From Deltaproteobacteria bacterium (GTDB lineage Bacteria > Myxococcota_A > Polyangia > Polyangiales > Houyiibacteriaceae), in NCBI GenBank assembly GCA_034670305.1, contig JAXMNT010000034.1:17439-81438 (forward strand): 64,000 bases of DNA. Reading direction: 5' to 3'. Positions within the stretch are counted from its first letter, which is position 1. Every line of letters begins with the position of its first letter. The notes beneath the pieces are model-generated. The model was given only the letters and a program-made list of their open reading frames with translations, did not search any database and had not been told where the DNA came from. The position numbers and the translations under genes are program-made. Shown here in pieces: positions 11,309-51,453 of the stretch.

Positions 11309-11363
11309 CGGCGAAGTGTACTGCGTTGAAGACGGCGCCGCCGCCGCCAGCGCGGGGAACCCG

Positions 11364-13675: not shown

Positions 13676-14167
13676 CTAGTGCGCGAGTTCCACGGCGTAG
13701 CAATGCGTCAACTGCGCTTCGCGCACCGGGCCGTCGTCGGCGATCGCGTAGCCATCCCAGATCGACTCCCGCCGCGCGCGTAGGAGGGCCTCTCGGTCGA
13801 TGCTCGGAACATGGTCTGCGAAATGCTCTAGATCCTGCAGCCACATCTTCTTGATCAGCGCGAGGAGCCAGAGGCCCCCAGCCCACTCGTCGCCAGCGAT
13901 GTCTTCGGTGGCATGAACGCGGCCATGCATCTGGGCGAGTGCTTCTCGGATCGCTGGGTCGAATGCGGTGTCGGGAACGGCGTAGAAGGCCGGCTCGAGC
14001 CATTGGTCATGGTCGTGGTAGACGACCACCGACACCGGTACGCCGGCGTTGCGTACCTCGTCGCTGTGCGGCAGCCCCAGCTCGCCGAGCCAGTCGAGGA
14101 TCACCGCGTGCGATGTGGGATTCTGCGGCGGGTTCTGCAGCAATTCTCGTAGCGTCTCACTGTCCAC
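13676..14167 (-). CDS. Hypothetical protein
   Basis: GGAGG RBS before GTG; globular composition. Confidence 0.65.
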   Translation of the reverse strand: MDSETLRELLQNPPQNPTSHAVILDWLGELGLPHSDEVRNAGVPVSVVVYHDHDQWLEPAFYAVPDTAFDPAIREALAQMHGRVHATEDIAGDEWAGGLWLLALIKKMWLQDLEHFADHVPSIDREALLRARRESIWDGYAIADDGPVREAQLTHCYAVELAH

Positions 14168-33896: not shown

Positions 33897-36218
33897 TCAG
33901 CGGCAGCGGAGCCGGCTGCTTCGGGTGGTGCTCGTACAACCCATCCCGGTGGGCGTCCCGATGCCTCCACACGCGCAGTCTTGGTGCGTGGTCGATTCGC
34001 CGCATTCGGCGGTGTGCGAGAGCGGACCAGCGCCGGCGCAGCGGCTCGTACACATGCTGCCCGACGTGGAGAAGCAGGTGACCGCGAGTGGCTGCTTCGT
34101 CTCGCCCGTCGAGCAGTCGTAGTCGAAACTCGCCGCCGTGCCCCCCATCCCACCACAGATGGTGGGGCAGTCCAACCCGTGGCTGGTGTAGCACCAGAAG
34201 CCTTCCCGAGCCGTGCGGGTGCAGTCACAGATGAGCGCGCCTGGGCTGTCGCAGTAGGGGGTGTCGAAGAAGCTGGTCTGATTGGGTCGCACGTCTTCGA
34301 GAAAGTCCCGGCAGTCCGTCTTGGGCAACGGCCCGCCCGCGCACGCGGCCCCCATGGGCGCGAACCCGTCGTTGTCGAAGTCTTCACTCACCAGGACCCC
34401 GCCACCGCTGCTGCAGTCGTTGTCGATGCGGTCGCAGATCTCGGTGGCCCCTGGGTTGACCGCGGACGCCCCGTCGTCGCAATCGGTGGTGTCGGTGTCG
34501 ACCGGTGCAGTCAGCGTGAAGTTGTCGCCGCACGCGCCGCAGATGCTCATGCCCATCGCGCCGCTCGGTGCGTAGCCATCGTCGTCCGCGTCCGCGTAGC
34601 AGGTCGTCGTGACCGTCTCGTCTACGGCGCCGTCGCAGTCGTCGTCGGCGCTGTTGCAGCTCTCGGCGACCGGCGAGATGGAGCACGCACCCCATGTCGC
34701 GCCTGGCCCACACGTTTCGGTGCCCGCCGCACAAGCGCCGGGCAACAGACAACCGCGTGACATGCCCGGCGTGCAGTCGCAGTCCTCGTTGACGGCGCCG
34801 TTGCAGTTCTCGTCCACACTCCCCGCGTCGCAGATCTCGGGCGCGCCGGGGTTGATCGCGAACACGCCGTCTTCGCAATCGGTCGCACCGGCTCCGGGTG
34901 GCCGGTTGGTCGTCGTCACGGGGCAGTTGCCCACCTCGGGTCGGCTCGCGTCGATGCAGCGCGACGCCCCGGTGGCTCCGCTGCCCGCGTAGGAGTCGCC
35001 GTCTCCATCTGGGTAGCAGGTGGCGCGAAGCATCTCGTCGACCGCGCCGTCGCAGTCGTCGTCGATGGAGACGCCTTCCAGGCAGACCTCCGAGGCACCC
35101 GGGCGCGACGCCGAACGATCGTCGTCGCAGTCGATGTCGGCCCCGGTCGGCGCACGGTTGGTCGAGTCGGTCGGGCAGCCCCCCACCGACTCGCGCCCCA
35201 CCTGCGGACACTCTGCGCGCGCGGTGGCTGCGGCGGGCGCGAAGCCGTCGTTGTCGAGGTCGTCGTAGCAAGTCACCGTCATGCCTTCGTCGGTCGCGCC
35301 ATCGCAGTCGTCGTCGACCTCGTTGCAGGTCTCGAGCTCCGGTTCGATCGTGCACGTCGCGCTCCAGGTCCCGCTGTCGCAGACCTCCACGCCCGCCGCG
35401 CAGGCGCCGCCGAGCGTACAGCCACGGGTCTCGCCCTCTTCACAGTCGCAGTAGCCTTCGGGGTTGGCCTCGCCATCGCAGTTCTCGTCCACCGGTGGCT
35501 CGGCGCTGTCGCAACGCTCCATCGCGCCGGGGTTGATCATGCTCTCGAGATCGTCGCAGTCGCCGTCGTTCTCCGCGAACCCTTCGGGTGCGCTGCATGC
35601 ATCGGTGGTCGTGCCGTCGATGTCTCCAAAGCCGTCGCCGTCGCCATCCGGCCAGTACGTGACCAGCACCTCTTCATCGACCAAACCATCGCAGTCGTCG
35701 TCGCGGCCATTGCAGCTCTCCGTGGCGTCGGGGTTGGTCCCCCGACGGGCGTCGTCGCAGTCGGAGCCGCAGACCAGCCCGCTGCCGTCTTCGTTGCAAC
35801 AGAGCGCGTCTGGGCTGTCGTCGCCGTCCACGTCGCGGAAACCAAACGTGCGCGGGTCGCAATCTTCGTCGACGTTCTCCAGATCGCAGACCTCAGCGTT
35901 GCCAGGGAAGCGACCGGGGTCCATGTCGTCGCAGTCGGCGCCGCCGCAGTCGGTACCGTCCACGCCATCGCCGTCGAGGTCGCACTCCGTTTCGTCGCAC
36001 GCATCGGCGACCTCATCGCAGACTCCATCGCAAGGCGCGCTCCCGGCTACACACGCGCCGTCGTTGCAGGTCTCGGTGCCATTGCAGAACCGGCCGTCGT
36101 CGCAGTCTGCCGCGGAGGTGCACAAACCACCGTCTCCCCCGGCGTCCGAAGTCATGGTGTCGTCGTCTCCGCAGGCAAGTGCCGCGCAGAGCAATACATA
36201 CAATGAAAGCCGTCCCAT
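33897..36218 (-). CDS. Lipoprotein with MopE-like putative metal-binding repeats (paralogue of 22086-23600)
   Basis: Lipobox ALAC; same repeat; shared DEDCDPRTFG block and terminal RCR. Confidence 0.85.
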   Translation of the reverse strand: MGRLSLYVLLCAALACGDDDTMTSDAGGDGGLCTSAADCDDGRFCNGTETCNDGACVAGSAPCDGVCDEVADACDETECDLDGDGVDGTDCGGADCDDMDPGRFPGNAEVCDLENVDEDCDPRTFGFRDVDGDDSPDALCCNEDGSGLVCGSDCDDARRGTNPDATESCNGRDDDCDGLVDEEVLVTYWPDGDGDGFGDIDGTTTDACSAPEGFAENDGDCDDLESMINPGAMERCDSAEPPVDENCDGEANPEGYCDCEEGETRGCTLGGACAAGVEVCDSGTWSATCTIEPELETCNEVDDDCDGATDEGMTVTCYDDLDNDGFAPAAATARAECPQVGRESVGGCPTDSTNRAPTGADIDCDDDRSASRPGASEVCLEGVSIDDDCDGAVDEMLRATCYPDGDGDSYAGSGATGASRCIDASRPEVGNCPVTTTNRPPGAGATDCEDGVFAINPGAPEICDAGSVDENCNGAVNEDCDCTPGMSRGCLLPGACAAGTETCGPGATWGACSISPVAESCNSADDDCDGAVDETVTTTCYADADDDGYAPSGAMGMSICGACGDNFTLTAPVDTDTTDCDDGASAVNPGATEICDRIDNDCSSGGGVLVSEDFDNDGFAPMGAACAGGPLPKTDCRDFLEDVRPNQTSFFDTPYCDSPGALICDCTRTAREGFWCYTSHGLDCPTICGGMGGTAASFDYDCSTGETKQPLAVTCFSTSGSMCTSRCAGAGPLSHTAECGESTTHQDCACGGIGTPTGMGCTSTTRSSRLRCR

Positions 36219-36324
36219 CCCGCCATGGTGCCGGGTTCTTGGCCGACAGACAAACCAGGTGGTGCTCGGTTCGGCAGCTCCGCATCAGCGGCTGGGCGGT
36301 GTGCTGCGAGCAACTGGATCCGCG

Positions 36325-37662
36325 TCAGGTCGAGGGGCAGCCGAACGTGAAGTCGAGGCCGTCGTCCACCTCGGCCCCCTGTACGGCTTCGCAGGTGGCC
36401 GGACAGAGCGCGATCCCATCGTCGTCGTCGTACGCCCAGCCCCCGGCGGCGTCGCAGTCGTCGAGCGCCGCGACCGGCACCAGCAGTCCGCTGCCTTCCT
36501 CGTCCCGCACCGCGACGCTCAAGTGTTCGGGCTCGAACGTGCCGCCATCGGGAACCGGCGGGATCGGCGCGCTGCACTGGACGCGGCGGTTGCTCACGGT
36601 GGACTCCGTGAATGCCGTGGCGAACGGTGCCCACAGAGAGTCGCCGTCGCAGATCGAAACGCGAACGCCACCGGTGCGCGCGACCAGCTCGGTGTAGGTC
36701 AAGCCGCTGGCGCGCACATTGCTCCCGTCCCCGAAGCGGCACCGCACCGTCGCATCGTCCTCGTCTCCAAAGCCGTAGATGCCACTGACCACGTAGCCGT
36801 CCATGAGTCCGCCCCAGCGGGCATGGAGGATCCCCTCGGGTAGGGTCCGTGTGTTGAACGGGTTGGTGCCGCCCGGGCTCGACTCGAACCAATCGGCGGT
36901 GGCTGAGGGATCGCTCCCAGGAACGAAGCCCGCGTCGGTGGCGTCGACCATGCGCGCGTTGTTGTGGGTGACAAAGACCAGCGCCTTCGCGGCGTCGGGA
37001 CGCAAATGGTCCACCCACGCCGGGCCTCCTTGCGAGTCGCCTTCTCGGTAGCCATCGGTCTGCCCGAGCGTGCCGAGGAACTGCTCGAGCGGGCTCGCGC
37101 CTCCCATGTCGATGGAGACGTGGAAGAAGCGCGTGCCGTTTGAACAACTGCTGTCCGCACTCAGCGGCGGAGGCACACAGATCGCTTCGGTCCGCATGGG
37201 TCCCACCGAGGACTGTCGCAGGCTCAGGACGACCAAGCGGTGGTCGAGCCCACGTGCCGACAACGCAATGGCGATCATGTTCAGCTGGCGCTCGAACGCG
37301 CGCAGCGTGGGTGCCAGTGAGGACGAGTTCTCGACCACGAAGATCACGTCGACCGCATCGTGGTGCTCGAAGGTCGCGGCGACCGTCTCGGCGACGCATT
37401 CGTCGGGCGCGTCTCGCCCCACATCGGCGCTCCCATCCGGGCCCACGTCGGCGCTCCCATCCGGCCCGACATCGACGTGCCCCACATCGACGCGTGCATC
37501 CAGCCCGACATCCGCACCGGTCGCATCGACCGGCCCGACATCGACGGCCGTCGCATCCGGGGACGCGTCGGCAAGGCCCGCATCATCGAGGGGCGCGGGG
37601 TCCTCACCACACGCAAGAAGCAGAAGCACCAGGGACGCGAATACCCATTGAACACGAAGCAT
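36325..37662 (-). CDS. Myxobacterial vWA-like lipoprotein
   Basis: Lipobox LLAC; VDVIFVVENSSS (degenerate MIDAS); LRPDAAKALVFVT; C-terminal GWAYD...IALCPATC. Confidence 0.75.
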   Translation of the reverse strand: MLRVQWVFASLVLLLLACGEDPAPLDDAGLADASPDATAVDVGPVDATGADVGLDARVDVGHVDVGPDGSADVGPDGSADVGRDAPDECVAETVAATFEHHDAVDVIFVVENSSSLAPTLRAFERQLNMIAIALSARGLDHRLVVLSLRQSSVGPMRTEAICVPPPLSADSSCSNGTRFFHVSIDMGGASPLEQFLGTLGQTDGYREGDSQGGPAWVDHLRPDAAKALVFVTHNNARMVDATDAGFVPGSDPSATADWFESSPGGTNPFNTRTLPEGILHARWGGLMDGYVVSGIYGFGDEDDATVRCRFGDGSNVRASGLTYTELVARTGGVRVSICDGDSLWAPFATAFTESTVSNRRVQCSAPIPPVPDGGTFEPEHLSVAVRDEEGSGLLVPVAALDDCDAAGGWAYDDDDGIALCPATCEAVQGAEVDDGLDFTFGCPST

Positions 37663-38084
37663 GGGGTCGAGCATATCAGCAGCTCTTTGGTCGCCGACCG
37701 CTCGAGGTCGAACGGGATGGCGACCGACCCAGCGATCTCGTCGTGCGCCTCGGCCCACCCCACTTCCCCTTCTACGGGAGCCTCGGAACGCGGAGGAGCG
37801 TGGCTTCCGGTGAACGTCGGCGAAATGACCACCCACGGCGCAGCGGGCGAGTTCGCCGCCGTCGAGATGGTGCCCGGCGTGGACCCCGAATCGCTCGGAC
37901 CTGCTCTACCGGCTCTTCATTGAAGACCACGCTTCGCGTTGTCGGAGCGATTGCTTGGCATGCCAACGACTCATCCCCGGACCGAAGCGCGAAGCGCCCC
38001 GCAAGACCCAATGGCGGCAGCGCGCGAATCGCCCCGCGTCTGGGCTCCCGCAACTGTCGACCGGCTGTGTCGATGAGGGGCTTC

Positions 38085-39719
38085 GTGACCGCGCCGCGAG
38101 CGAGAGTGCATGGAGAGACGCTGGCGATGACGCGGCGGACGAACCTGCGGAAGTTCGTGCTCGGCAACTGGGACCCGCAGGTCTCGCAGATCTACCTGTA
38201 CTCACTTGGGGCGGCAGCGCTTGGTGCCGACGATGGGATGGGGGAGCGGCTGTCGGAGGCGGTGTTTCATCAGATCTGTTTGATGGGTACGCACCCGCAT
38301 GTGTTGTTGACCGATGTGCGCGGGCGGGCGCCGAGGATCTTTTGTCGGGCGCACTCGTGGAGCGCGAAGGCGATCAACGTGCTGCTTGCGAAGCGCGGCT
38401 ATCAGCGGCTTGGGCAGGTATACGACGGGCGGCAGATCTCGTTCGTCCGAACCATGGACTGGTCGGCGGAGTTGAAGCAGGTGCTGTATCAGTTCTTGAA
38501 CCCGGTGGCGGCGGGGTTGTGCGAGAAGGCGGCGGACTACGACGGGGTGTGCACGCCTTTGGAATGGATCGGTGGGTACCGGTTGCGGGTGAAGCGTCCG
38601 GATGTGTTCTTCGACCCGTCGTTTCCGGCCGAGGTCATTCTCGTGTTCGGTCCGCCGCCGGCGGCGTACATCGCGTATGGCGGGGATACGAAGCGGATGG
38701 TGGCGGACCTGCGAAGTGACGCGCGCAAGCAGGAGAAGGCGATCGCTGCGATGCGACCGTTTCCGGTGCTCGGCGAGCGGAAGATGCATCCGTGGGATGA
38801 ACCGAACACCTTGGTGGAACGGTGGAGTCCCAACCGGCCGCTTGTGACGATCGGTGTCGGTGGGGCCTGGGAACGCAAGCGGCTGCGGGAGCTCGTGCGG
38901 GCCGAAGTGGAGCAGTTCTGCGTTGGGCACGAGAAGGTGCGGCAGGAAGAGAAGGCGCAGATCGCGCGGCGGGTGAAGAAGGCAAAGGAGCGGAGACGCG
39001 CGGAGGCGCTGGAACGAGAACGTCCTGCACAGGAGTTGGAGTGCGGCTCCGAGGGCTCTCAGGAGCCTGCGCGCGAACAGGAGCCGGACACCGCCGCTCG
39101 TGAACAGGAACCGCAACCGGACACCGCTCGTGAACAGGAAGAGCCTGGAGGCGACGCGGTGCCTGGAGAAGAAGGCGACGAGGCACCCAAAGAGGAACGC
39201 GACATCGTGTACCCGTACGGCACCTACAAAGCGGCGCGCGAGCGACGCCACGAAGTGAAGCCGCCGAGTGGCGAGGCGTACTTCCTCGCGCCGGGTGTGT
39301 TCGACGAAGGCTGGGCCAGCCGGTACGTCGAGTGCGAGTTGCCGAAAGAGGTCGTGTTGGTGACCGGACGTGCGGTCGCGGACGAAGAGCGACGCAGCGA
39401 ACGAGAAGAGTCCGCCCAAGACGTCTCCGACTTCTACGGCACCATGTACGACAAGCTCGTCGAGCGTGAGAAGGAAGCCTCCTCGAGAGCCTCGAGTGCG
39501 GAGGTCGAAGACCAGGCGGATGAACCCACCGCCGCCACCGACCGCAACCAGCAGAAGAGCGCCACCAAGCGACCGAGCATCCAACCACCGATGGCACCGC
39601 ACCCAGTTCGCGAGCGCTACGAAAAGCGCCCCGACTTGTCCGACACCAACCGAGTCACCGTCCGCCGAGACCTCCTCCGACCAGGCGGAGCTCCTCGGTC
39701 CGACGAAGACCCCGACTGA
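38085..39719 (+). mobile_element. rayT: REP-associated tyrosine (HUH/Y1) transposase, RAYT, with acidic C-terminal extension
   Basis: MTRRT, LMGTHPHVL (HUH), Y..LNPVAAGL and YPYGTY motifs; flanked by palindromic repeats; start uncertain (38073 or 38085). Confidence 0.82.
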
Positions 39720-40446
39720 ACACCCTCAGCCGGCTGAAAGAGCCCAAGCGCGGCCCGGCAACAGCCCGAGCCGCGCACACCTGCGTCCGAAGCAAGACGC
39801 CAAGACCCAGAACCGCTCCAACAACCCCTCACAGCACCCATCCGGCTCCCAAGTGAACTGAGTTGCAGCGCATCCAGCGCAACAGCCCACCTCACGGAGC
39901 CGTCAAACGAAGTTCAAAAGCGTGCCAACGTCTCTCCCCCCGGACGGAGCGCGCGAAGCGCCCGTCCTCGAGAGCCTCGAGTGCGGAGGTCGAAGACGCG
40001 GATGAACCCACCGCCGCCACCGACCGCAACCAGCAGAAGAGCGCCACCAAACGACCAAGCATCCAACCACCGATGGCACCGCACCCAGTTCGCGAGCGCT
40101 ACGAAAAGCGCCCCGACTTGTCCGACACCAACCGAGTCACCGTCCGCCGAGACCTCCTCCGACCAGGCGGAGCTCCTCGGTCCGACGAAGACCCCGACTG
40201 AACACCCTCAGCCGGCTGAAAGAGCCCAAGCGCGGCCCGGCCACAGCCCGAGCCGCGCACACCTGCGTCCGAAGCAAGACGCCAAGACCCAGAACCGCTC
40301 CAACAGACCCTCACAGCACCCATTCGGCTCCCGAGTGAACCGAGCTGCAGCGCATCCAGCGCAACAGCCCACCTCACGGAGCCGTCAAACGAAGTTCAAA
40401 AGCGTGCCAACGTCTCTCCCCCCGGACGGAGCGCGCGAAGCGCCCG
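39480..40446 (+). repeat. Tandem duplication of about 485 bp (RAYT 3' end plus downstream REP)
   Basis: 39480-39964 versus 39965-40446; near-identical, with a 3-bp indel and a few substitutions. Confidence 0.95.
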
Positions 40447-40719
40447 ACCCAACAGCCCACCTCCCGGAGCCGTCAAACGAAGTTCAAAAGCGTGCCAACG
40501 TCTCTCCCCCCGGACGGAGCGCGCGAAGCGTCCCACCTCACGGAGCCGTCAAACGAAGTTCAAAAGCGTGCCAACGTCTCTCCCCCCGGACGGAGCGCGC
40601 GAAGCGCCCATCCTCTCCCCCCGGACGGAGCGCGCGAAGCGCCCTCGGAGCGCGCAAAGCGCCGCTCCGGGACGGAGTGCGCGAAGCGCCCCCCACGCGA
40701 ACGGAGCGCGTCCGCGCGG
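39886..40719 (+). repeat. REP cluster: 78-bp units ending in CCGGACGGAGCGCGCGAAGCGCCC
   Basis: Units at 39886, 40368, 40456 and 40532; shorter cores at about 40613, 40645, 40670 and 40697. Confidence 0.9.
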
Positions 40720-40779
40720 CTAGAGCGAATTGACTGTTGGGAAGGATTTGGCGGAAGCTGCCTCAGAAAGGTCTAAGGG

Positions 40780-41538
40780 ATGGAAAGAAGATACTGGAGC
40801 CAGTTCGTTGACGCCAAGACTGTGCTCGGATGGAGGTGTCCACGCTGCAACGTGGGGCACCTTGAAGCGGAAGCTGAAGGGTGGAGGGAGGAAGATGTGA
40901 AGGAGAGCGGGGGAGCGGACTGCGACTGGGAACCGGACTGGGTGCGAAACCTATGGACCGGCAGTTTGAGATGTAGGTCCTCGTCATGCGGCGATGTGGT
41001 GGTTGGTATGGGATACACGAGTCTGGATCAGGAGGTGGATGAGGAAGTCGGCCTCATTTGGGTATCCAGGTATCATCCGCTGCTGTTCGAGCCCCCACTG
41101 CACATCGTCGCTCTGCCCAAGTCGATTCCGGCTCTTTTGGAGACCGACCTGATCGAGGTTTTTCGACTGTACTGGGCATCGCCGTCAGCGGCAGCAAACC
41201 GACTCCGAGTAGCGATAGAGCACTACTTATCCTTGCAGAAGGTGCCGCGGTCACGGAGGACAAAGAAGGGGAAGCTTGTGACGCTGCCACTCCACACTCG
41301 CATTGAACGTTTCAAGCAGGCTCGCCGGACCAATGCGGACGTTGCCGACCATCTCCTGGCACTAAAGTGGCTCGGTAATGAGGGTACTCATGATGGAACG
41401 CTGACCCACGACGACGTCCTGGATGGGCTGGTGATTCTGGAGGAGGCCCTTCGGCACATTTCTGGAAACGCTTCGGCATCGAAGGCACTGACAATGTCGG
41501 TCAACAAGAACCGAGGGACCGGGAGGAAGAAGCGGTAG
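40780..41538 (+). CDS. DUF4145 (HEPN-like) domain protein with N-terminal Cys motif
   Basis: CPRC; AAANRLRVAIE, LHTRIERF and ALKWLGNEGTH; lower GC than flanks. Confidence 0.78.
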   Translation: MERRYWSQFVDAKTVLGWRCPRCNVGHLEAEAEGWREEDVKESGGADCDWEPDWVRNLWTGSLRCRSSSCGDVVVGMGYTSLDQEVDEEVGLIWVSRYHPLLFEPPLHIVALPKSIPALLETDLIEVFRLYWASPSAAANRLRVAIEHYLSLQKVPRSRRTKKGKLVTLPLHTRIERFKQARRTNADVADHLLALKWLGNEGTHDGTLTHDDVLDGLVILEEALRHISGNASASKALTMSVNKNRGTGRKKR

Positions 41539-41571
41539 AGACGGCGGGGCAACGCGAGGCTAAGGCCAGTA

Positions 41572-41692
41572 CCCCGGACGGAGCCGCCGAAGGCGTCGTC
41601 TCCCCGGACGAAGCGCGCGAAGCGCTTTAGACCGAGCGCGCGAGCGCTGCAAACGTCTCTCCCCTCGGACGGAGCGCGCGAAGGCGCGCGCG
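41572..41692 (+). repeat. Second REP cluster (four degenerate GGACGGAGCGCGCGAAG cores)
   Basis: Between the convergent DUF4145 and NTPase genes; same orientation as the first cluster. Confidence 0.85.
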
Positions 41693-41699
41693 TCGGCAT

Positions 41700-44600
41700 T
41701 TAGGTGAAGTCGATACCCACGACCGATATCGCTGCAACCGCTGGGTTGGTCGCTACAATCTTGGAGGCATAGTTTTGTAGGAGGATGAGGAGTCGATCGT
41801 ACTGAACCACGGAGCCCGTCGTGGGCTCCACCCACCCTTGCGAACGCCGCTCGGTCTGCGCAAGAACGAAGATGCCGTGCTTGGCCTGCCCATCTCGCAT
41901 ATAGCGACCAACGAGTTGATCTTCTATTGCGTGTTCTAAAGCAGGGATAGTGTATTGGTTCTTGGCGAGCCGCTTTAGCTCGATAGTTACGCGAGGAATC
42001 CCAGGAATATGAACGGAAATATCGGTCCTCTTGCTATCAAGAACCTCTGCTTCGCGAACCACAGAGTAGACGGTCCCCCAGCGAAAGTCGAGTTGGTCCG
42101 CCATCCACTCTGCAACTGCAGACTCCTCGGCGTGTGGGTGAACTAGACTACGATAAGAGTGATCGCCGGATTGCACCCGGTCAACTATTAGTGCGATGTG
42201 CCGCGTCAATAGGGTAAAGAGTTCGCGATCATCACTTGGTAGGCGCACATCGCAGCGTTCGATTGACAGGATATCGTCCGGGGTTAGGGTCAAAGACTCA
42301 AGGGACGCGCGCGAACGCAACTGGGCCGCTCGATAGAATGACAACTCTTCATGCCACGAAGAGAGAGAGGAAGATTGCATGAGGTGGTCGAAGAGCTGAG
42401 TTGCCGTCTCCGTACCGTTCTTGGATATGGAGTTCAAGATGTGAGTTCGATAGTACTCAGCTTCATCAGCATCTGTGGATGAGTATACAGTGTTGGCAGG
42501 ACGGTTCGGTGCTGTAATGCGAGAGAGTAGCAGTCGTACAAAGGGCAACAGTCGTGAGATATGGGAGAAGCTCCTGGCCTCCCTAGAGTCGAGAGTGCCA
42601 CGCAATAGATCGTTGGACATTCGAGCGGCGACTCCGGTGGCAAGCTCTGAGGGACAGCTACCGGGGCGCGAATCTATCCACGATGATGTGGCTTCAGGAT
42701 CCGTAATGAGACATCCCGTCAGAACAGGTATGAGTGCGCCAATATCGTCGGGGAGATCGTATCGGTCGCAGACTGTGGCCAGTGCGTCAGCGATGCATTC
42801 ATTCGAGCGCTCGGAGGCGAGTAGTATCGATGCCGCGTGGGCGCTCACCTCGGGTGAGCTTGGATTGGCGGTGCGGATCAACTCTATGATCTCGTCCGAC
42901 GCCATCTCTATGAGCCTAGGCCCAGCACCGGATAGCAGTCGTATGGACTGAGGAGTAGTGGTCCAATCGCGGCTAATCTCTCGTCTAATCCACTTGCGCG
43001 CGACCGAAGGGTGAATGGTGGCCAAGTGTGACACCCAGGACGGATAGCGATTGAGAGAGTGGGCGGCATGCCTGAACAGCAGCGCGGCTTCGCTGGGACT
43101 GACGTCCTCGGGTCGACCTCCTTCTGCGAACCACACTTGAGCGCTGAGAAGCCCTACTACGCCGAGGGGATTGACTTTTGTTGGGGTGGGTCCCAGCGGG
43201 GCGAAGGTGGACCATACATCCCGGATTCCACGGAGGAGTAGCTCGGCGACCGTGTTCCCGAGGTACGCTACAACACGCTCACGCGAATACTCAAATCGGT
43301 CTGATGAGAACCCCAGCTGGGCAAACCAAGGCTGGTTCGCCAGTTGACACAGCAGCCCGAGGTGGCCGTTCTCCAGAGCGTGGGCATTGCATGCTAGGCA
43401 GCGAATACGTCGGATCTTCGCCAACCTGTCTTTTGCAGCCTGTCGTCGGGCAGACCGGCCAGCCGAAGTCGGTGGATTCATGGTTGCTAGTGCTGCGGGA
43501 AACGATGCAAGGATGGCGGCACGGTGTGACGAATCGCTGCCCCCTTCTAGATACAGTCGACACAGCAGATGGACGGCGACGAACTCCTCCGCATTCGGAA
43601 TGTGTTTTTTGAGAAATGGGCTTAGCCACGGAGTATCCGCAGGCTTGAAGCGCCAGGATCGGCTACTTTGGACCCACGCGAAGAGGCGTTTTTTATTGCG
43701 GACTATGGCGTCCGTGAGCAGGATTTCACGCAAGTTTATGGTGGCTTGGCTCAGAGCTGTCGCGAGTGAATCTAGCGGTAGATCGTATCGGTGCTCCGCG
43801 CTCCGCTCCAGGAAACTAAGTGCATCCAGTAGGATTGGCATCAATCTCGGCGGAATTGGCTGTCGTCGGATGACCAATCTCGATACGACTTCTTCTAGGA
43901 GTCTTGCAACCCACAGATGCTTCTTGTTGCAGATTCGACCTCCACGTGATCGTGTGCGGGAGTAGAAGTGGGCAATAGTGTGGAGTCCACGCGCAAGTCT
44001 CCAAAGCGAACGCTCCGGCGCGCGGTTGCTGACGGCGCTGACTAGAGAAGCATCTGCTGCGAGGTCGGCACCAACCATCTGCGCAACTAGTGCCAGAACT
44101 TGGTTGGTAGACAGTTGGTCTGGGAACGCAACTCGGACTAGCGAAGAAATGAGTTCGGGGGGCGGAGTGGGGAGTATGCGTTCCGCAATCTTGCGCACGA
44201 TGTGCGGAGGGGCAGAGGCAGTTGCCTCGATGGCGGAGGCTCGGGTTTCTAGTGACCGCGTGGGGTCGATCGCAATGGCAACGAGCTCGCTACTTGCCTG
44301 GGTGAGCAAGCCACTCTCAGCAAGACCAAGTAGGAGCTGGAATACTAGTTCGCTTGTTCCTGGAGTAGAGCAAGCGGTGCGAAGGACAATCGCTATTTCT
44401 TGTTCGATTGGCGCATGTGCGAGACTGGCGATGGCAGTAGGTGTGAGCCAGTTGTCTGGTCGAAGCTGAGAGTCGTGCTGGTGGATCCAGTTGGTGAGGC
44501 ACTTGGAGAGGGTCGACCTGGGAAGCAGGTAGGGTGCACCGTGAAACAGCAGGGCACCTGGGTCATGCTCGGTCAGACGCTGACGAACCGCGGTATTCTC

Positions 44601-45710
44601 AATGGCAACCCAAGCCGCAATAGCCCGTCGACCAGGAGGCACCTGGACGCAATCCGGGAGGGGAACGAACAGTAGATCAGCTGGATCAAGCGAAGCACTT
44701 CGGGTTCTTCGATCGAGCCATTTTGCCGCAAGATAGTCGACGGATTCGAGTCTCTGAAAGCGAACCGCGTCTACGGAAGCCGAACCGAACAACGCAGATC
44801 CCAGGAGCCATGGGATTAGCTCCGGGCGCCACGTCGGCAATACGACGTGCGGGTCAATCATCTGCGGGTGACTAGCACTGGAGGTTGCGATGGAGGGGCT
44901 CACCCCGAAGGCGATGCAGGCAGCCAGAGTCTGTAGGGCAGAGTACGCGTCCTCGCGGCTGGGCATGGCTGGAGCGGGATGGTGGTCGCCGCATCCATCC
45001 AGGATTGATCTGTGGAGTCGCTCGTGTGGTAGCCCCAGTTTTCCTGTGTCGCGCCATTCACGGGCAGCTTGCACCGCCTGAAGTGGCCAGAGAACTACAC
45101 TTGCGCCACCGACCGACCGAAGCCGGTGGAGGAACTGGTCGACGTCGGCTATTCCATTGTCCTCCGCGATACGTCGGACATCCGAGTTGCTCAGTGGGTT
45201 GAGCCTGTAGTACAGGATCTGCTGGTTCGGTTGGAGATCCAAAGCGGCTCGAAGCCGTTCTGGATCTGTCAGGACATCCCAGTCGCGATTGCGCGATGTG
45301 ATGATATATCGTGCGGGTCCGTGCACGGACTGAAAGGCTCGAAGTCGGGCCAATGCAATCGTCAGGCCCTTCGGGTTATGGCGAACTGATTGGTCCGCAC
45401 CGTCCAGTAGGTAGAGTGGGTTGGAGTCTAGACCTATCGTAGTCTTGAGAAGTACGCCGGGGTCAAGGTGCACCATTTCCTCGATATCAAGAAAATGGTG
45501 ATTCTCAAGTTTGGAGAGCTGCTGAAGCTCCGTGGTCTTACCGCTCCCAGCTGGACCTAGGATAACCACGCAGAACGCGTTGGAGGTGAGTCTGGTCTGG
45601 ATATCAACCCAGCTAGCCCTCGCGCCGTCCACATGAGAGGTAGCACGAGGATCTTGAAGCTGATGGAAGCGTCGCTCTAGTGAGCTCAGCTTCCCTGGAG
45701 TTGGCATCAC
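41700..45710 (-). CDS. NACHT/STAND-like NTPase with C-terminal PD-(D/E)XK nuclease-like domain; putative defence protein
   Basis: GPAGSGKTTEL, YLLDGAD, YIITSR; helical middle region; REAEVLDSKRTDI...IELK...QLVGRY; atypically low GC. Confidence 0.78.
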   Translation of the reverse strand: MMPTPGKLSSLERRFHQLQDPRATSHVDGARASWVDIQTRLTSNAFCVVILGPAGSGKTTELQQLSKLENHHFLDIEEMVHLDPGVLLKTTIGLDSNPLYLLDGADQSVRHNPKGLTIALARLRAFQSVHGPARYIITSRNRDWDVLTDPERLRAALDLQPNQQILYYRLNPLSNSDVRRIAEDNGIADVDQFLHRLRSVGGASVVLWPLQAVQAAREWRDTGKLGLPHERLHRSILDGCGDHHPAPAMPSREDAYSALQTLAACIAFGVSPSIATSSASHPQMIDPHVVLPTWRPELIPWLLGSALFGSASVDAVRFQRLESVDYLAAKWLDRRTRSASLDPADLLFVPLPDCVQVPPGRRAIAAWVAIENTAVRQRLTEHDPGALLFHGAPYLLPRSTLSKCLTNWIHQHDSQLRPDNWLTPTAIASLAHAPIEQEIAIVLRTACSTPGTSELVFQLLLGLAESGLLTQASSELVAIAIDPTRSLETRASAIEATASAPPHIVRKIAERILPTPPPELISSLVRVAFPDQLSTNQVLALVAQMVGADLAADASLVSAVSNRAPERSLWRLARGLHTIAHFYSRTRSRGGRICNKKHLWVARLLEEVVSRLVIRRQPIPPRLMPILLDALSFLERSAEHRYDLPLDSLATALSQATINLREILLTDAIVRNKKRLFAWVQSSRSWRFKPADTPWLSPFLKKHIPNAEEFVAVHLLCRLYLEGGSDSSHRAAILASFPAALATMNPPTSAGRSARRQAAKDRLAKIRRIRCLACNAHALENGHLGLLCQLANQPWFAQLGFSSDRFEYSRERVVAYLGNTVAELLLRGIRDVWSTFAPLGPTPTKVNPLGVVGLLSAQVWFAEGGRPEDVSPSEAALLFRHAAHSLNRYPSWVSHLATIHPSVARKWIRREISRDWTTTPQSIRLLSGAGPRLIEMASDEIIELIRTANPSSPEVSAHAASILLASERSNECIADALATVCDRYDLPDDIGALIPVLTGCLITDPEATSSWIDSRPGSCPSELATGVAARMSNDLLRGTLDSREARSFSHISRLLPFVRLLLSRITAPNRPANTVYSSTDADEAEYYRTHILNSISKNGTETATQLFDHLMQSSSLSSWHEELSFYRAAQLRSRASLESLTLTPDDILSIERCDVRLPSDDRELFTLLTRHIALIVDRVQSGDHSYRSLVHPHAEESAVAEWMADQLDFRWGTVYSVVREAEVLDSKRTDISVHIPGIPRVTIELKRLAKNQYTIPALEHAIEDQLVGRYMRDGQAKHGIFVLAQTERRSQGWVEPTTGSVVQYDRLLILLQNYASKIVATNPAVAAISVVGIDFT

Positions 45711-45715
45711 CTACC

Positions 45716-48700
45716 TCACGAACACCCCATCGAGTTCCCGCAGTTCAGGCACTTATAACAAGCCCCATTCCGAACCGTAATGTTCCCACACTTCTCGCAC
45801 ATGGGCGCATCCCCCATCATCTCCCCAAGCTGCTGACTCAGCGCATTCTTCGGCCCACCAGCCACAGCCGGCTTCGCCCCCTCAGTCGCCGCGTCCGCCG
45901 AAGCAGAGTCATCAAACCCAAACGTCGCCTGCTCGGCCTTCTTGAACTCAGCCGGCGGAGGCGTGGAATGCCCGGCCGTCCCCTCGGCCCGCTGCGCCGC
46001 CGACACATCGGTCGCGCTCAGAAGCTCTTCCTGCTCCTCCTTCGGAGGCACCTGGGCAAAGTCGTACCGCTTCAAGTACTCGACGCCCAACACCCTAAAG
46101 ACGTAGTCGATGATGCTCGTGGAGAACTTGATGTTCGGGTGGCCTTCGACGATGCCGCCGGGCTCGAACCGCGTGAACGTGAACTGGTTGATGTAGTTCT
46201 CGAGCGGGACGCCGTGCTGCAGGCCCATGGAGATCGAGATGGCGAAGCAGTTCATCAGGCTGCGGAAGCTGGCGCCTTCTTTGTGCATGTCGATGAAGAG
46301 CTCGCCGAGGGAGCCGTCGTCGTACTCGCCGGTGCGGAGGAACACTTTGTGTCCGCCGATGCGGGCTTCTTGGGTGAAGCCGCTGCGCTTCTTCGGCAGG
46401 CGGTGCCGCACGCTGTCGGGCGGGCGCAGGCCTTCTTGGGAGGCGTTGGCGACGCGCGGGCGCGCGGGCGCGGTGATGTCTCCGTTCGAGGTGATCTTCG
46501 TGACCTTGGCGGCGAGCGTCTCGGTCTCTTCTTCGTCCTCGTTGTCCTCGTCGGACTGGGCGCTGAGCGGCTGGCTCATCTTGCAGCCGTCGCGGTAGAG
46601 GGCGATGGCCTTGAGGCCGAGCTTCCAGCCCTCCATGTAGATCTCTTCGATCTCTTCGACGGTGGCCTCGTTGGGGAGGTTGACGGTCTTGCTGATCGCG
46701 CCGGAGAGGAACGGCTGGGCGGCCGCCATCATGCGGATGTGCGACATGGCGGCGAGGAAACGTTCGCCCTTCTTGCCGCAGCGGTTGGCGCAGTCGAAGA
46801 CCGGCAGGTGCTCGGGGCGAAGGTGCGGGGCGCCTTCGATGGTCATGCGGCCGATGACGACCTCGTTGAGCTCTTCGATCTGCTTTCCGTCGAGGCCCCA
46901 GTGGCGGAGGATGGAGAAGCCGGGCGCGTTCATCTCTTCGGGCGTGATGCCGAGGCGCTCGTAGGCTTCCGGTCCGATGATCCACGGCGCGAGCGCGAAG
47001 CTCACGTCGAAGACGCCGCGCAGTTCGACTTCGGCCTTCTCGACTTCGCGTTCGGTGAGGCCCTTCTCGAGGAGCGCTTTGCGGCCGAGGTGCGGCGCGC
47101 CGGTGAAGGTGTTGGTGCCGGTGACGTAGCTGACGATCTCGGCGGCCTGGCCTTCGGTGTAGCCGAGCTTCTTGAGGGCGCCGGGCACGCTCTGGTTGAC
47201 GATCTTGAAGTACCCGCCGCCGGCGAGCTTCTTGAACTTCACGAGGGCGAAGTCCGGCTCGATGCCGGTGGTGTCGCAGTCCATGAGCAGACCGATCGTG
47301 CCGGTGGGCGCGAGCACGGTCGCCTGCGAGTTGCGGTAGCCGTAGAGCTCACCGAGGCGGACGGCGAGGTCCCAGTCCTGGCGCGCCGCGCGCACGAGGT
47401 AGTCCGGGCAACCCGCGGGTTTGTCCTCGGCGATGCCGGGGCCGCCGGGCTCGTCGATCTGGTAGGCGGCGTCGCGGTGTTTGTTCATCACGCGGAGGAA
47501 GGGCTGCCGGTTCTTGGTGTAGCCGGGGAACGGGCCCTTGCTCGAGGCGATCTCGGCGCTGGTCGCGAAGGCGTGACCGCACATGATGCTCGTGAGGGAG
47601 CTGGCGATCGAGCGGCCGAGGTCGCTGTCGTAGGGGATGCCGAGGCGCATCAGCATGGTGCCGAGGTTGGCGTAGCCGAGGCCGAGCGGGCGGTAGTCGT
47701 GGCTGTTCTTCGCGATGTCGCGGGTGGGGTAGCTCGCGAGGTCGACGAGGATCTCCATCGCGAGGATGAGGACGCGGATCGCCTGGCGGTAGCCGTCGAC
47801 GTCGAAGCGGCCCTCTTCGTCGACGAACTTCACCAGGTTGATCGACGCGAGGTTACAGGCCGAGTCGTCGAGGAACATGTACTCGGAGCACGGGTTCGAC
47901 GCGTTGATGCGGTCCGTGTTCGGGCACGTGTGCCAGTCGTTGATGGTGGTGTCGTACTGGACGCCGGGATCGGCGCACTCCCAGGCGGCTTCGGCGACCA
48001 TGCGCCACAGCTCGCGGGCCTTGTAGGTGTTCACCACGTCGCCGGTGGTGCGCATCTTCGTCTGGTGGTCGCCGTTGGTCTCGACCGCCTTCATGAACTC
48101 GTCCGTGACGCGCACGGAGTTGTTCGAGTTCTGGCCGCTGACGGTGTGGTAGGCCTCGCCGTTGAAGTCGCTGTCGTAGCCGGCGGCGATGAGGGCGCGT
48201 GCTTTGCGCTCTTCGCGGCTCTTCCACTGGATGAAGTCGCTGATCTCCGGGTGGTCCATGTCGAGGCAGACCATCTTGGCGGCGCGGCGGGTGGTGCCAC
48301 CGCTCTTGGTCGCGCCGGCCGCACGGTCGAGCACTTCGAGGAAGCTCATCAGGCCGCTCGAGGTGCCGCCGCCGGAGAGCTTCTCCTGGCGACCGCGGAT
48401 GTGGCTGAAGTTGGAGCCGGTGCCGGAGCCGAACTTGAAGAGGCGCGCTTCGTTCTGGACGAGCTGGTAGATGGCCATCAGGTCGTCGTCGACGCCCTGG
48501 ATGAAGCAGGCGGAGCACTGGGGCTGCGCGTAGGCGTTGTCGGTCTGGATGATCGCGTCCTTGCGGGGATCCCAGAACCAGTTGCCCTCGGCGCCGACGA
48601 TCTCGTACTCGTGCCAGAGGCCGCAGTTGAACCAGACCGGCGAGTTGAAGGCGGCCTTCTGGAGGAGGAGCAGGTGGACGAGCTCGTTCTCGAAGTTCTC

Positions 48701-49099
48701 GGCGGCGGCTTCGTCGGCGAAGTACCCGCCGAGCTCTTCGCCGGTGCGGCGAATGGTGTGGGCGACGCGGTGCACGAGCTGCTTGGCGCTGCGCTCGCCT
48801 TTGTTCTTGTCGCCGTGCAGGCCGGCTTTGCGGAAGTACTTGGAGACCGCGATGTCGGTGGCGAGCTGAGACCAGCCGACCGGGACTTCGACGCCCTTGA
48901 GCTCGAAGACGACCGAGCCGTCGGAACCGGTGATGATGCTGTTGCGAAGCTCGAACTCGACCGTGTCGTACGGGTTCTCGCCCGCACGGGTGAGCTTGCG
49001 ATCGATGTGCAGGCCCCCCGACTGCTGCGTCACCTCCGCGCGACGAAGCGCTCCGTCCACCATTTGCTCGCCATCCATCTTCCGGGTCTCTAGTGCCAC
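45716..49099 (-). CDS. nrdJ: Vitamin B12-dependent (class II) ribonucleotide reductase
   Basis: FNSPVWFN, QCSACFI, NPCSEY, ACNLAS, APTGTIG, GAISKTVN, YRDG; C-terminal Cys cluster; GTG start chosen from a GGAGG RBS. Confidence 0.96.
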   Translation of the reverse strand: MALETRKMDGEQMVDGALRRAEVTQQSGGLHIDRKLTRAGENPYDTVEFELRNSIITGSDGSVVFELKGVEVPVGWSQLATDIAVSKYFRKAGLHGDKNKGERSAKQLVHRVAHTIRRTGEELGGYFADEAAAENFENELVHLLLLQKAAFNSPVWFNCGLWHEYEIVGAEGNWFWDPRKDAIIQTDNAYAQPQCSACFIQGVDDDLMAIYQLVQNEARLFKFGSGTGSNFSHIRGRQEKLSGGGTSSGLMSFLEVLDRAAGATKSGGTTRRAAKMVCLDMDHPEISDFIQWKSREERKARALIAAGYDSDFNGEAYHTVSGQNSNNSVRVTDEFMKAVETNGDHQTKMRTTGDVVNTYKARELWRMVAEAAWECADPGVQYDTTINDWHTCPNTDRINASNPCSEYMFLDDSACNLASINLVKFVDEEGRFDVDGYRQAIRVLILAMEILVDLASYPTRDIAKNSHDYRPLGLGYANLGTMLMRLGIPYDSDLGRSIASSLTSIMCGHAFATSAEIASSKGPFPGYTKNRQPFLRVMNKHRDAAYQIDEPGGPGIAEDKPAGCPDYLVRAARQDWDLAVRLGELYGYRNSQATVLAPTGTIGLLMDCDTTGIEPDFALVKFKKLAGGGYFKIVNQSVPGALKKLGYTEGQAAEIVSYVTGTNTFTGAPHLGRKALLEKGLTEREVEKAEVELRGVFDVSFALAPWIIGPEAYERLGITPEEMNAPGFSILRHWGLDGKQIEELNEVVIGRMTIEGAPHLRPEHLPVFDCANRCGKKGERFLAAMSHIRMMAAAQPFLSGAISKTVNLPNEATVEEIEEIYMEGWKLGLKAIALYRDGCKMSQPLSAQSDEDNEDEEETETLAAKVTKITSNGDITAPARPRVANASQEGLRPPDSVRHRLPKKRSGFTQEARIGGHKVFLRTGEYDDGSLGELFIDMHKEGASFRSLMNCFAISISMGLQHGVPLENYINQFTFTRFEPGGIVEGHPNIKFSTSIIDYVFRVLGVEYLKRYDFAQVPPKEEQEELLSATDVSAAQRAEGTAGHSTPPPAEFKKAEQATFGFDDSASADAATEGAKPAVAGGPKNALSQQLGEMMGDAPMCEKCGNITVRNGACYKCLNCGNSMGCS

Positions 49100-49756
49100 A
49101 CTTGCCTCCAACCTGCGTCCCATCGGGACATCACTCAACGTTTCTCGCTCGCTCACAACCACTCACTCGTACTCAACAACACACGGCTTCCGACCGACGG
49201 GGACGAACTGGGTTGGATCGTTGCTGGAGCGCGTCACTCCGATCTTCTGCGTACAGTCTGGCCGATCCGGGGGATCCAGGGGATCCGGGAGCGGTTGTGC
49301 GGAGGGCCGAGCGCTGACGTCTTCTGCGTCGAGCGATGCGGATGCCTCGTTGCACTCTTCTTGCACTCTTGATGCGCGCTTCATGCGATCCGACCTCGTG
49401 CGGACCGATCTTCACTTCCTTCGTCACACAGCGGTGCCCTCGGAATGAGTCCCCAACTCATCCACTTCCAACTCACAGGCACAGCCCCGTTTTCCACCGT
49501 GTACCCACAAGGGGTTGGGCTGGTCCGTAGGCGACCTCCACAACCCCTAGGGGAAGACCCGTTGCTACGCTGTCCTGGCGAGAGGGTCAAGCGACGAATC
49601 GAACGCTCTCTGACGACTGGGTTCAAGCAGCTGAAATCATGATGATTTCCGCGTTCGCCGACATCGTCGCCGGATGTGCACCACGCGTACACATTTGGGG
49701 TGTCAAAGGAGCTACGAACATGCGGTGTGTGGCCACGTAGTGTCACGACGTGAACC

Positions 49757-49772
49757 CTACTAGATGTAGTGG
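49757..49772 (-). promoter_or_regulatory. NrdR box
   Basis: CCACTACATCTAGTAG on the minus strand fits the acaCwAtATaTwGtg consensus, upstream of nrdJ. Confidence 0.7.
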
Positions 49773-50272
49773 TGTCGCCCCAAAAAAAGCGCAAGAGGCA
49801 GGGGTGGATGCACAGGTCTCGAAGGATGTGGGGGAGGTAGCAAGCGTGGATCGCTCGGGTGACCACTGGGTGTCATCTGAGGCTCGGGGACGGATCGAAT
49901 TCGGGAGATCGTCTCGGTAAAGACGGGGTGTTCTGGGATCTCGGAGGGCGGTGGACACGGGATTCGAATTGGATCGGCCGCTCGAGGCGGGTTTGGGGGA
50001 GGCCGAATGTCTCAACTACGGTGCCATCCCGGTGTGACATGGAAAGCGGAGATCGTGTAAGTGGCTGGGATGGTTGGGTTTTTTGTGGGTTGTGGATGCG
50101 GGCGGGGTTTTGGGGTGGAGAGGTTCGAAACGGTCGTTTTTCGGGATCCGGCGTTTGGCGGAGGGGGCACAAAGTGAGGGGTCAGTGGGCCAATGTTGTC
50201 GGGGTGGGGCGGTGGGGGTGGGGAAATGGGGTGGGGGTGGAATTTGGGGGCGCGGGAGGTCGGGACGGGACC

Positions 50273-50330
50273 GAGGGCAAGGGCCCGCAGGACCGAGGGC
50301 AAGGGCACGGGCAAGGGCACGGGCAAGGGT
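50273..50330 (+). repeat. GGGCAA/GGGCAC hexamer array
   Basis: Same motif at 19481, 51523 (reverse), 52320, 58554 and 63922 (reverse). Confidence 0.8.
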
Positions 50331-50346
50331 CCTCCGCCTCTCCGCC

Positions 50347-51309: not shown

Positions 51310-51453
51310 AAGCGGACATTAGCTGTGTTGATGGTGGGATGAATAGCATCGATTGGGGGAATGTGTTCGCTGGAGGCAGATTGATTCTCGTCGGAGGGCG
51401 AGGCGGAATCGGCCGCAGCGGACTCCACGAAGCACGAGACCAAGGACCCCACG

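Follow-up and report, generated by a model that had tools for sequence, protein, structure and literature searches.

Does the array of short hairpin repeats between a predicted transposase gene and two low-GC, defence-like genes serve as a landing site for foreign DNA, or do separate elements here merely lie side by side? The question is raised by a 64,000-nt stretch of contig C34 (positions 17,439-81,438), hereafter the window, from the genome of a Deltaproteobacteria bacterium (GCA_034670305.1; G000 in our set; 7.93 Mb in 105 contigs, 68.1% guanine plus cytosine (GC)), to which the contigs labelled C3, C6, C25 and C44 also belong. A sequence-only reading had named the gene a REP-associated tyrosine transposase (RAYT) and the repeats repetitive extragenic palindromic (REP) sequences, and had proposed that the array takes up defence genes in the manner of cassettes; the order of genes and repeats that it gave and its coordinates are right, and its two labels do not stand. 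We favour, at a probability of about 60%, a reading as two neighbours: an IS-like (insertion sequence-like) element of 1.9 kb with a Y1 transposase-like gene, at the outer edge of a foreign defence islet that lies after nrdJ.

The start of the Y1 gene is placed at an ATG at 38,073 (548 aa) or a GTG at 38,085 (544 aa), because a conserved first strand (G-x-x-L-A-M-TRR) is found in the translation upstream of the first ATG. The protein consists of a catalytic domain (about residues 1-260), a low-complexity insert and a C-terminal extension, and its AlphaFold2 model (predicted local distance difference test score, pLDDT, 91.2) has as its best Foldseek match in the PDB the E. coli TnpA-REP (4er8_A, E = 1.5e-5), followed by the transposases of ISDra2, IS608 and IS200; the best 27 ranks are Y1 transposases without exception. 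Residues H70, H72, Y135 and N139 (numbered from the GTG at 38,085) are invariant or nearly so in an alignment of 61 sequences, the tyrosine motif being YQFLNP (Y-x3-NP), and the model fold together with these conserved catalytic residues points to a single-strand nuclease-transposase of the HUH/Y1 type. Curated models recognise the family poorly: Pfam returned zero matches to the window protein, Y1_Tnp included, and NCBIfam NF047646 (REP_Tyr_transpos) reached 18.3 bits (E = 0.0016) against a cut-off of 80, a score that, along with the multiple gene copies described below, speaks against the RAYT label. Weak matches to Y1_Tnp were obtained for 22 of the 61 aligned relatives (best E = 2.3e-6) and weak matches to REP_Tyr_transpos for 55 of them (best E = 9.4e-19). 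A profile of the N-terminal 258 residues retrieved 4,778 cluster representatives at E <= 0.001, of which 364 also pass E <= 1e-30, and the family members among the matches listed are mostly 290-450 aa long. The gene is thus a predicted HUH/Y1 single-stranded DNA (ssDNA) transposase from a large uncurated branch of the TnpA-Y1 superfamily with the Y-x3-NP signature.

The genome holds six full copies of this gene, plus fragments. Three of them, the window element and full-length copies on C44 (78% identical by tblastn) and C3 (77.5%), are here called type A, and the other three (two on C3, one on C6), paralogues 32% identical to the window protein by tblastn, are called type B. The C44 and C3 type A copies are 94% identical to each other, with similarity beginning only 4 nt before the ATG, and align by blastn with the window copy at 80% identity from 38,050 or 38,062 to 39,961. 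The type B copies (C3:198,000-200,000, C3:210,500-212,600 and C6:109,000-110,700) are 96-98% identical in DNA, form an element of 1.7 kb, and have at their borders a terminal inverted repeat of 23 bp, of which 21 match (score 38, shuffle maximum 30-34); at two loci, one on C3 and one on C6, their right ends share the 40-60 nt that follow, a piece of type A coding sequence, and type B either inserted into a type A copy and spread with that flank or targets that site. The family profile also matched 22 of 30 related genomes, all from other genera, with up to 16 matches each and several at contig ends; close relatives of the Y1 protein or of the NACHT protein described below were not found in genome contigs. 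Outside IS200, discussion of Y1/HUH enzymes usually treats them as domesticated RAYTs present in single copy. The multiple copies here and the up to 16 matches in related genomes resemble the behaviour of an IS, unlike the single-copy RAYT pattern.

The repeats themselves prove to be the ends of this element. A 20-nt motif, GGACGGAGCGCGCGAAGCGC, occurs eight times in the window at <=3 mismatches (0.15 expected from shuffles; 0 of 100 shuffles reach eight), every time on the + strand and between 39,942 and 41,686, so the repeats are far above chance and, as had been claimed, co-oriented. The core GCGCGAAGCGC likewise occurs eight times in the window against 0.51 expected; one copy, at 37,987-37,997, is the 'REP core' of the earlier reading, and another, at 13,714 on the - strand, is unrelated. 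Genome-wide, a 21-nt motif at <=2 mismatches has 11 matches, seven at the window locus and one each on C44, C3, C6 and C25, and an nhmmer profile of a 77-nt unit finds about 15 units, solely on those four contigs and C34. Every unit forms the 3' terminus of a type A copy, complete or reduced to a 3' fragment, and in all copies the alignment of type A sequences ends at the foot of the hairpin. The GCGC-GAA-GCGC hairpin of the earlier description is present, only it is longer in the sister copies (GGAGCGC-GCGAA-GCGCTCC, a 7-bp stem), and the window hairpin differs in its outer pairs and has an alternative 10-bp stem with a bulge. Folded as ssDNA, 39,900-39,969 reaches -14.9 kcal/mol (z = -2.65), a stability attained by 2 of 200 shuffles; as background to this structure there are the known stability of the mini-hairpin d(GCGAAGC) and the cleavage geometry of IS608. 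Upstream of the element, 37,961-38,000 is 69% identical to a 36-nt right-end reference, is co-oriented and holds the exact hairpin core, with a weak nhmmer score (E = 0.54). The left border is less distinct: similarity among type A copies starts 4-23 nt before the ATG, there is no conserved hairpin there, and a CAAC found at the left boundary of all three type A copies could be a target or part of the element. No shared target sequence was seen by eye beside the right ends at the five loci.

What had been called REP clusters are head-to-tail series of right-end copies of the element, truncated on the left and terminating at a common nucleotide. The first does contain the repeats, and it also holds a 482-nt tandem duplicate of the Y1 gene's own 3' end, which copies the last 485 nt of the element (39,477-39,961) with the codons for the last ~80 residues; the duplicate is supported by repeat search (300 nt at 99%) and by a second tblastn match (residues 450-535 at 94%), and the stretch that it copies starts beside a right-end-like site within the Y1 gene, GAGCGTGAGAAGGAAGCCTCC, at 39,462. 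It is followed by units of 88, 76, 35 and 47 nt and a degenerate tail, all with the common terminus and with starts progressively further right; the start of the 88-nt unit falls directly behind a further GCGC...GCGC hairpin, at 39,869-39,881. The second array (repeat match up to 94%; nhmmer E = 2.6e-4 and 0.012) fills the spacer between the convergent DUF4145 and NACHT genes and ends 8 nt from the NACHT stop codon. Comparable structures recur elsewhere: on C3 the full type A copy is closely preceded by a right-end fragment of 360 nt, duplicated ends are found in type B copies, and in G012, a complete one-contig genome of another genus, three homologous elements carry tandem end duplicates of 675 nt (99.9% identity), 146 nt (99.3%) and 68 nt (100%). 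The similar end duplicates in G012 and in type B mark terminal-fragment arrays as a trait of this element family.

The two genes beyond the first array are foreign and defence-like, as the sequence-only reading had it. Their GC contents, 57.6% for the DUF4145 gene and 57.0% for the NACHT gene, compare with a genome mean of 68.1% (standard deviation 1.6% in 4-kb windows), and only 0.04% of the genome's 4-kb windows are lower in GC than the NACHT gene. The NACHT protein matches NCBIfam NF058534, 'NACHT antiphage protein HyoA', over its residues 11-1336 and model positions 1-1428 of 1,430 (E = 7.4e-137; 457.9 bits, below the cut-off of 1,200), and matches the NCBIfam EruA model at E = 1.1e-53; by these scores it is a distant HyoA relative, not an equivalog. 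Its sequence includes GPAGSGKT, a Walker A motif, at residue 52 and, at residues 1230-1246 near the C terminus, a D...ELK motif like that of PD-(D/E)xK nucleases (Pfam HSDR_N E = 0.0076, sub-threshold). The HyoA family is present in 9 of 301 genomes of the phylum, beside IS66, type I restriction-modification and SNF2/Hypoth_Ymh genes, and a word-based homologue search returned the protein's own record, one homologue at 27% identity and one weak partial match. No papers on HyoA or EruA as antiphage proteins were found in the literature searched, so the family name derives from NCBIfam alone. The 252-aa product of the neighbouring gene matches Pfam PF13643 (DUF4145; E = 1.9e-14, 53.9 bits against a cut-off of 23.1) and is modelled (AlphaFold2, pLDDT 89.9) as an N-terminal four-cysteine zinc ribbon followed by a HEPN-like helical domain. 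For residues 113-230 of the model, VIA-align ranked HEPN domains best (2hsb, Z = 10.3, root-mean-square deviation 3.4, 107 aligned residues; sacsin HEPN 3o10, Z = 9.3), values that are suggestive of a HEPN-like fold, a Z below about 13 being weak for helical bundles; Foldseek gave no match to the model at E <= 0.001. The HEPN catalytic motif is defined as R-x4-6-H, and the protein has K196-W-L-G-N-x-G-S-H204 in its place, with the lysine almost unchanged across 39 homologues. The nearest homologue of the protein shares 42% identity with it, and the protein is present in 1 of 300 other genomes of the phylum; a fixed partnership of DUF4145 with HyoA-like genes was not seen in four homologue contexts.

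The far boundary of this low-GC DNA is set by nrdJ, and no repeat lies there. The NACHT gene starts 5 nt from the nrdJ stop codon, with neither a repeat nor a terminator between. The gene nrdJ is single-copy in 19 of 20 relatives searched (68-85% identity), and the DNA downstream of it was compared in 10 of them. None of the seven non-nrdJ window proteins tested is encoded there, and four of the 10 have lower-GC DNA after nrdJ: G004 (56.5%, with 74.5% at two of its other loci), G006 (53% against 66% at another locus), G007 (49-60% against 62-72% further along the same locus) and G012 (57.5% against about 60% at other loci). G005, G009 and G011 have 67-77% GC and no low-GC stretch, G002 equals its own genome background, and G008 and G010 have no background sequence for a GC comparison. 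The genes that follow nrdJ include an EruA-like NACHT-patatin gene of 1,501 aa in G012 (G012:C1:2303000-2317200) and an AAA_22/nSTAND1-like ATPase gene in G007. The comparison across related genera, which the cassette proposal had invited, thus turned up other foreign DNA and, in the sequence available, none of this repeat, which defines the variable site by nrdJ and not by the repeat. Judged by these gene contents, foreign genes, NACHT/STAND genes among them, appear to have entered repeatedly at the 3' end of nrdJ in different genera of the bacterial family, and the DNA after nrdJ looks like a defence hotspot anchored on nrdJ; no description of nrdJ as a defence-gene anchor in this family was met in literature searches, which did not name nrdJ.

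Other Y1 genes occur at the same site in G012, where two 97%-identical copies of a different subfamily (338 and 388 aa) flank a TPR gene right after the NACHT-patatin gene; their motifs, NHLH and YVDLNP, fit Quentin's subclass 2.3. A 20-nt motif, AAATATGGGTGTCCTATTTT, has three 100% copies at the boundaries of this pair (L028, 5696-9227) and a fourth, of 70%, at 5,024. The open reading frames (ORFs) after nrdJ in G004 and G006, of 371 and 444 aa, have no family match.

Table 1 Features of the locus, in window coordinates, with what each assignment is based on or how the feature is placed.
Feature	Position	Strand	Basis or description
Degenerate solo right end of type A element ('REP core')	37,961-38,000	+	~50 nt upstream of full element
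Full type A IS-like element	38,050-39,967	+	Y1 gene, 240-nt 3' untranslated stretch, right-end hairpin
HUH/Y1 transposase-like gene	38,073 or 38,085 to 39,719	+	Fold and motifs
Right-end hairpin of full copy	39,941-39,967	+	GGACGG-A-GCGC-GCGAA-GCGC-CCGTCC
482-nt tandem duplicate of element end	39,962-40,443	+	Repeat search and tblastn
Nested shorter right-end fragments	40,444-40,719	+	Repeat search, nhmmer, direct reading
DUF4145 gene, 252 aa	40,780-41,538	+	Pfam PF13643
Second array, 3-4 degenerate right-end cores	41,572-41,692	+	Repeat search, nhmmer
HyoA/EruA-family NACHT NTPase gene, 1,336 aa	41,700-45,710	-	NCBIfam
nrdJ, class II ribonucleotide reductase	45,716-49,162	-	Pfam Ribonuc_red_lgC E = 4.9e-137, Ribonuc_red_2_N E = 1.4e-21

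Under the two-neighbour reading, a 5-kb low-GC islet (about 40,740-45,715) with the DUF4145/HEPN-like and NACHT genes was acquired horizontally at the 3' end of nrdJ, and Y1 elements of this family in this genome would insert, or persist, beside foreign low-GC DNA with the right end facing it. The arrays may then have arisen if the Y1 enzyme nicks the foot of the hairpin and the freed 3' end slips back on the template and is re-extended, or, as an alternative to slippage, by repeated partial copying anchored at the right end; a few right-end units would also have been copied 0.85 kb away, into the spacer of the convergent DUF4145 and NACHT genes.

The element shares features with several described systems and differs from each of them. 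IS200/IS605 elements use single-strand circle intermediates and recognise sub-terminal hairpins, and their TnpA (subclass 1.1) is ~150 aa long with a Y-x3-Q motif (PMC6006769, Table 1). The window element resembles IS608 and ISDra2 in its Y1 HUH fold, the hairpin at the element end, multiple copies and high intragenomic identity, and differs in a protein three to four times longer (544 aa), Y-x3-NP in place of Y-x3-Q, the missing Pfam Y1_Tnp match, and in having no tnpB and no left-end hairpin or fixed target sequence that we could find. Y-x3-NP is, in the excerpts of Quentin et al. (2018, PMC6006769), the signature of TnpA-Y1 class 2, and subclasses other than 1.1 are there not associated with typical IS features. 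The family agrees with that class in the NH-x-H type of HUH motif of its consensus, in Y-x3-NP and in long proteins with extra C-terminal regions; it departs from it in copies that are multiple, up to 98% identical and have defined ends, and the window protein has H-P-H instead of the motifs listed in the excerpts. The TIRYT/TIRtron, a RAYT-like gene flanked by long terminal inverted repeats in the excerpts of Di Nocera et al. (2013, PMC3733652), is approached by type B with its 23-bp inverted repeat, unlike type A, which has none; neither end fits the GGGG[AT][CG]A[CG] consensus as quoted in PMC6006769, and the helix-turn-helix tails given there for subclass 2.1 are absent from the proteins here (no Pfam match). 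Core-gene-flanked defence hotspots and bacterial NACHT (NLR-like) antiphage proteins offer a parallel in the patchy, low-GC NACHT gene beside a conserved core gene; the HyoA family in particular is matched in the P-loop motif and in a patchy, island-associated distribution, and is not matched in score, which lies below the curated cut-off.

Right ends of the element are found beside low-GC DNA more often than a random placement would give. The 1 kb downstream of the right end has 59.3% GC after the first window array and 54.1% after the second, 59.4% on C44, 56.7% on C6, 59.9% on C25 and 64.2% on C3. The genome has 66 patches of <=61% GC, 117.6 kb in total, and such a patch lies within 1.5 kb of seven of nine loci with the Y1 family or the end repeat, a distance at which by our own estimate a random locus has a chance of about 6-7%; eight of the 66 patches are so marked, and the other 58 are without a Y1 element nearby. 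The DNA downstream of the right ends differs in sequence from locus to locus, and type B copies show the same low-GC tendency. The association of right ends with foreign low-GC DNA is real and far beyond chance, and the enrichment that the sequence-only reading had led one to expect was thus found; alone it is no proof of a landing site. A general polarity of this kind is absent in relatives, where downstream GC is the lower in 23 of 42 family copies from five other genomes (p = 0.43; two partial ORFs were dropped and two copies lack an upstream flank).

Several observations weigh against the two-neighbour reading. The low-GC DNA is one-sided: at four of the five loci the downstream 1 kb lies at or below the 0.5th percentile of 31,368 1-kb windows (5.5% for C3), left flanks are normal in three of four, and this right-end polarity is unexplained by simple co-location. 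The DUF4145 gene is bracketed by co-oriented arrays, and the last unit of the distal array has the window copy's own sub-terminal variant. In three right ends, those of the full C3 copy, of a second C6 unit and of the related metagenome contig L099, the sequence breaks off within the hairpin and continues into unrelated DNA (on L099 into a lower-GC IS630-like fragment), which suggests that the hairpin itself is where breakage and joining occur. Type A, for which no inverted repeat was detected (alignment score 18-28, within the shuffle range), also has no recognisable left end and so is not a textbook IS. Finally, a short-read assembly, split at this point into small unitigs, underlies the array at 39.8-40.6 kb, whose exact unit count is uncertain. 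That the hairpin is an active break-and-join site, which both spawns the end-fragment arrays and acquires or carries foreign genes on its 3' side, is a conjecture that we hold to be unlikely.

A first alternative is that the Y1 enzyme nicks the right-end hairpin and joins foreign ssDNA into it, the array growing as a cassette platform. Extreme low-GC DNA, of different sequence each time, faces the right end at four of five loci; the DUF4145 gene starts 61 nt after the first array and stands between two; a solo 75-nt right end on C25 is followed, after ~64 nt, by a co-oriented low-GC ORF of 310 aa; the three hairpin-internal junctions fit joining; and, in agreement with the earlier reading, no integrase or recombinase family matched among the 26 window ORFs scanned. 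In an integron-like platform a recombination site would bound each cassette, and cassette content would vary between close relatives. Here only one segment, DUF4145, has the repeat on both sides, and the NACHT gene abuts nrdJ without one, so of the landing-site claim the bracketing of DUF4145 stands and the delivery of the NACHT gene does not. Elsewhere the right ends adjoin a lipoprotein-like ORF, small ORFs downstream of an Rhs-like gene, an IS630-like fragment and bpMoxR, none recognisably defence, and in the first, second and last of these cases the neighbouring gene is convergent with the right end. The 58 low-GC patches without an element and the even split in relatives also count against capture, as does the failure to see alternative joints or forms of the locus in four sequencing runs, of which contig sets were searched. 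We consider a cassette platform unlikely.

A second possibility is 3' transduction, in which the element would overrun its right end and carry downstream low-GC DNA with it in a one-ended or rolling-circle-like manner. It would account for foreign DNA on the right-end side only, for the 40-60 nt of type A coding sequence that type B copies on C3 and C6 share beyond their inverted repeat, and for left-truncated copies with a fixed right end. The transposases of IS91, ISCR and Helitrons, of which IS91 and ISCR are known for one-ended transposition, are Y2-type, Rep-like HUH enzymes. Here, by contrast, the best 27 Foldseek ranks are all Y1 transposases and the motif has a single conserved tyrosine, so the predicted fold is Y1 rather than that of a Y2 Rep; nothing is common to the segments downstream of the different copies; and the NACHT gene at the nrdJ stop codon, together with foreign DNA at that position in other genera, points to nrdJ as the anchor. 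We regard transduction as quite unlikely, and a capture or transduction role for the right end, the two combined, as clearly less likely than the two-neighbour reading yet far from negligible, in view of the right-end polarity, the bracketing of DUF4145 and the hairpin-internal junctions.

It is also rather improbable that the array at 39.8-40.7 kb is partly an artefact of short-read metagenome assembly. Four sequencing runs of one study, possibly the source of this DNA, were available as Logan contigs; no RNA run was listed among those containing the sequence. Unitigs break at 38,188, 38,594, 39,509 and 39,775, depth is 0 in one bin each in runs X3 and X4, and no listed record spans the 482-nt duplication, all of which an artefact would explain; depth gaps at 39.85-40.49 kb are not interpretable. 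Against it, one unitig runs from 40,615 to beyond 46,500 without differences in all four runs and thereby joins the last units, the DUF4145 gene, the second array, the NACHT gene and nrdJ, and similar terminal arrays are present in the complete one-contig genome of another genus.

RAYTs typically occur as one copy per genome in the excerpts of Bertels et al. (2017, PMC5581495), and REPs usually in more than 100 copies per genome in those of Nunvar (2010, PMC2817692). A domesticated RAYT with its REPs (a REPtron) is very improbable here and is contradicted by gene copy number and repeat distribution: the Y1 enzyme does lie beside short GC-rich hairpin repeats, has the HUH and tyrosine motifs and a fold nearest to E. 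coli TnpA-REP, belongs to a family in which REP_Tyr_transpos matches are common though weak, and has solo end fragments (on C25, on C6 and in the 41.6-kb spacer) that behave slightly like REPs, but there are six full gene copies and not one, the score of the window protein is far below the cut-off, and the ~15 units are confined to five loci, all at type A element ends, all co-oriented and with no inverted flanking of the REPtron form, instead of being dispersed at high copy number.

Several further features were noted around the copies. On C6 (103,277-108,017) a 1,308-aa Rhs-like ORF, with YD-type repeats and a PxxxxDPxGL-like core end recognised by eye and no Pfam match, is followed by two small ORFs of very low GC (0.44-0.56 at third codon positions) that converge on a Y1 right end and probably encode a toxin tip and its immunity protein. 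The C3 type A copy is adjoined by genes for an ArdC-like anti-restriction/metallopeptidase protein and a bpMoxR AAA ATPase (C3:215,600-219,583), and the surrounding C3:195-222 kb, with three Y1 elements, has the appearance of an integrated mobile region. Runs of hexanucleotide microsatellite (GGCATC-like and GACGCA-like) occur next to the solo right end on C25 (C25:33,995-34,100) and, on C6, at a distance of ~2 kb on the upstream side of the type B copy (positions 10,500-11,500 of locus L004). The largest other low-GC patches (51.6-54.9% GC), at C85:10,301-17,300, C46:22,401-26,300 and C35:57,501-61,400, are not near a Y1 element. Within the window, the 503-aa gene upstream of the element (36,325-37,836, - strand) belongs to a multi-copy family with eight matches in the genome and no Pfam match, and its 5' part holds four imperfect 37-nt direct repeats (37,416-37,572; 65-100% identity). 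A second low-GC patch (59.4%) at 48,863-50,262 (C34:66,301-67,700) covers the start of nrdJ and the DNA upstream, with a 161-aa ORF without family; no riboswitch or other Rfam family was found in it, an Rfam scan of 36,000-51,500 gave zero families at the gathering score, and promoter and terminator sites in 37,800-46,000 are no more numerous than in shuffles.

No literature linking RAYTs or REPs with defence islands or cargo was found. For the Y1 enzymes, the locus means that a large branch with 4,778 cluster representatives and no Pfam model of its own is still IS-like, and that its nested end arrays can be mistaken for REPs. If the hairpin did break and join as conjectured, it would provide an integrase-free ssDNA route to small defence or toxin islets, with an outcome like that of integrons or ISCR and with a Y1 HUH enzyme in their place; the one-sided link between right ends and low-GC DNA would likewise, if mechanistic, be a new integrase-free way to gather defence genes. 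In this bacterial family, the 3' end of nrdJ may be a useful place in which to find new defence systems.

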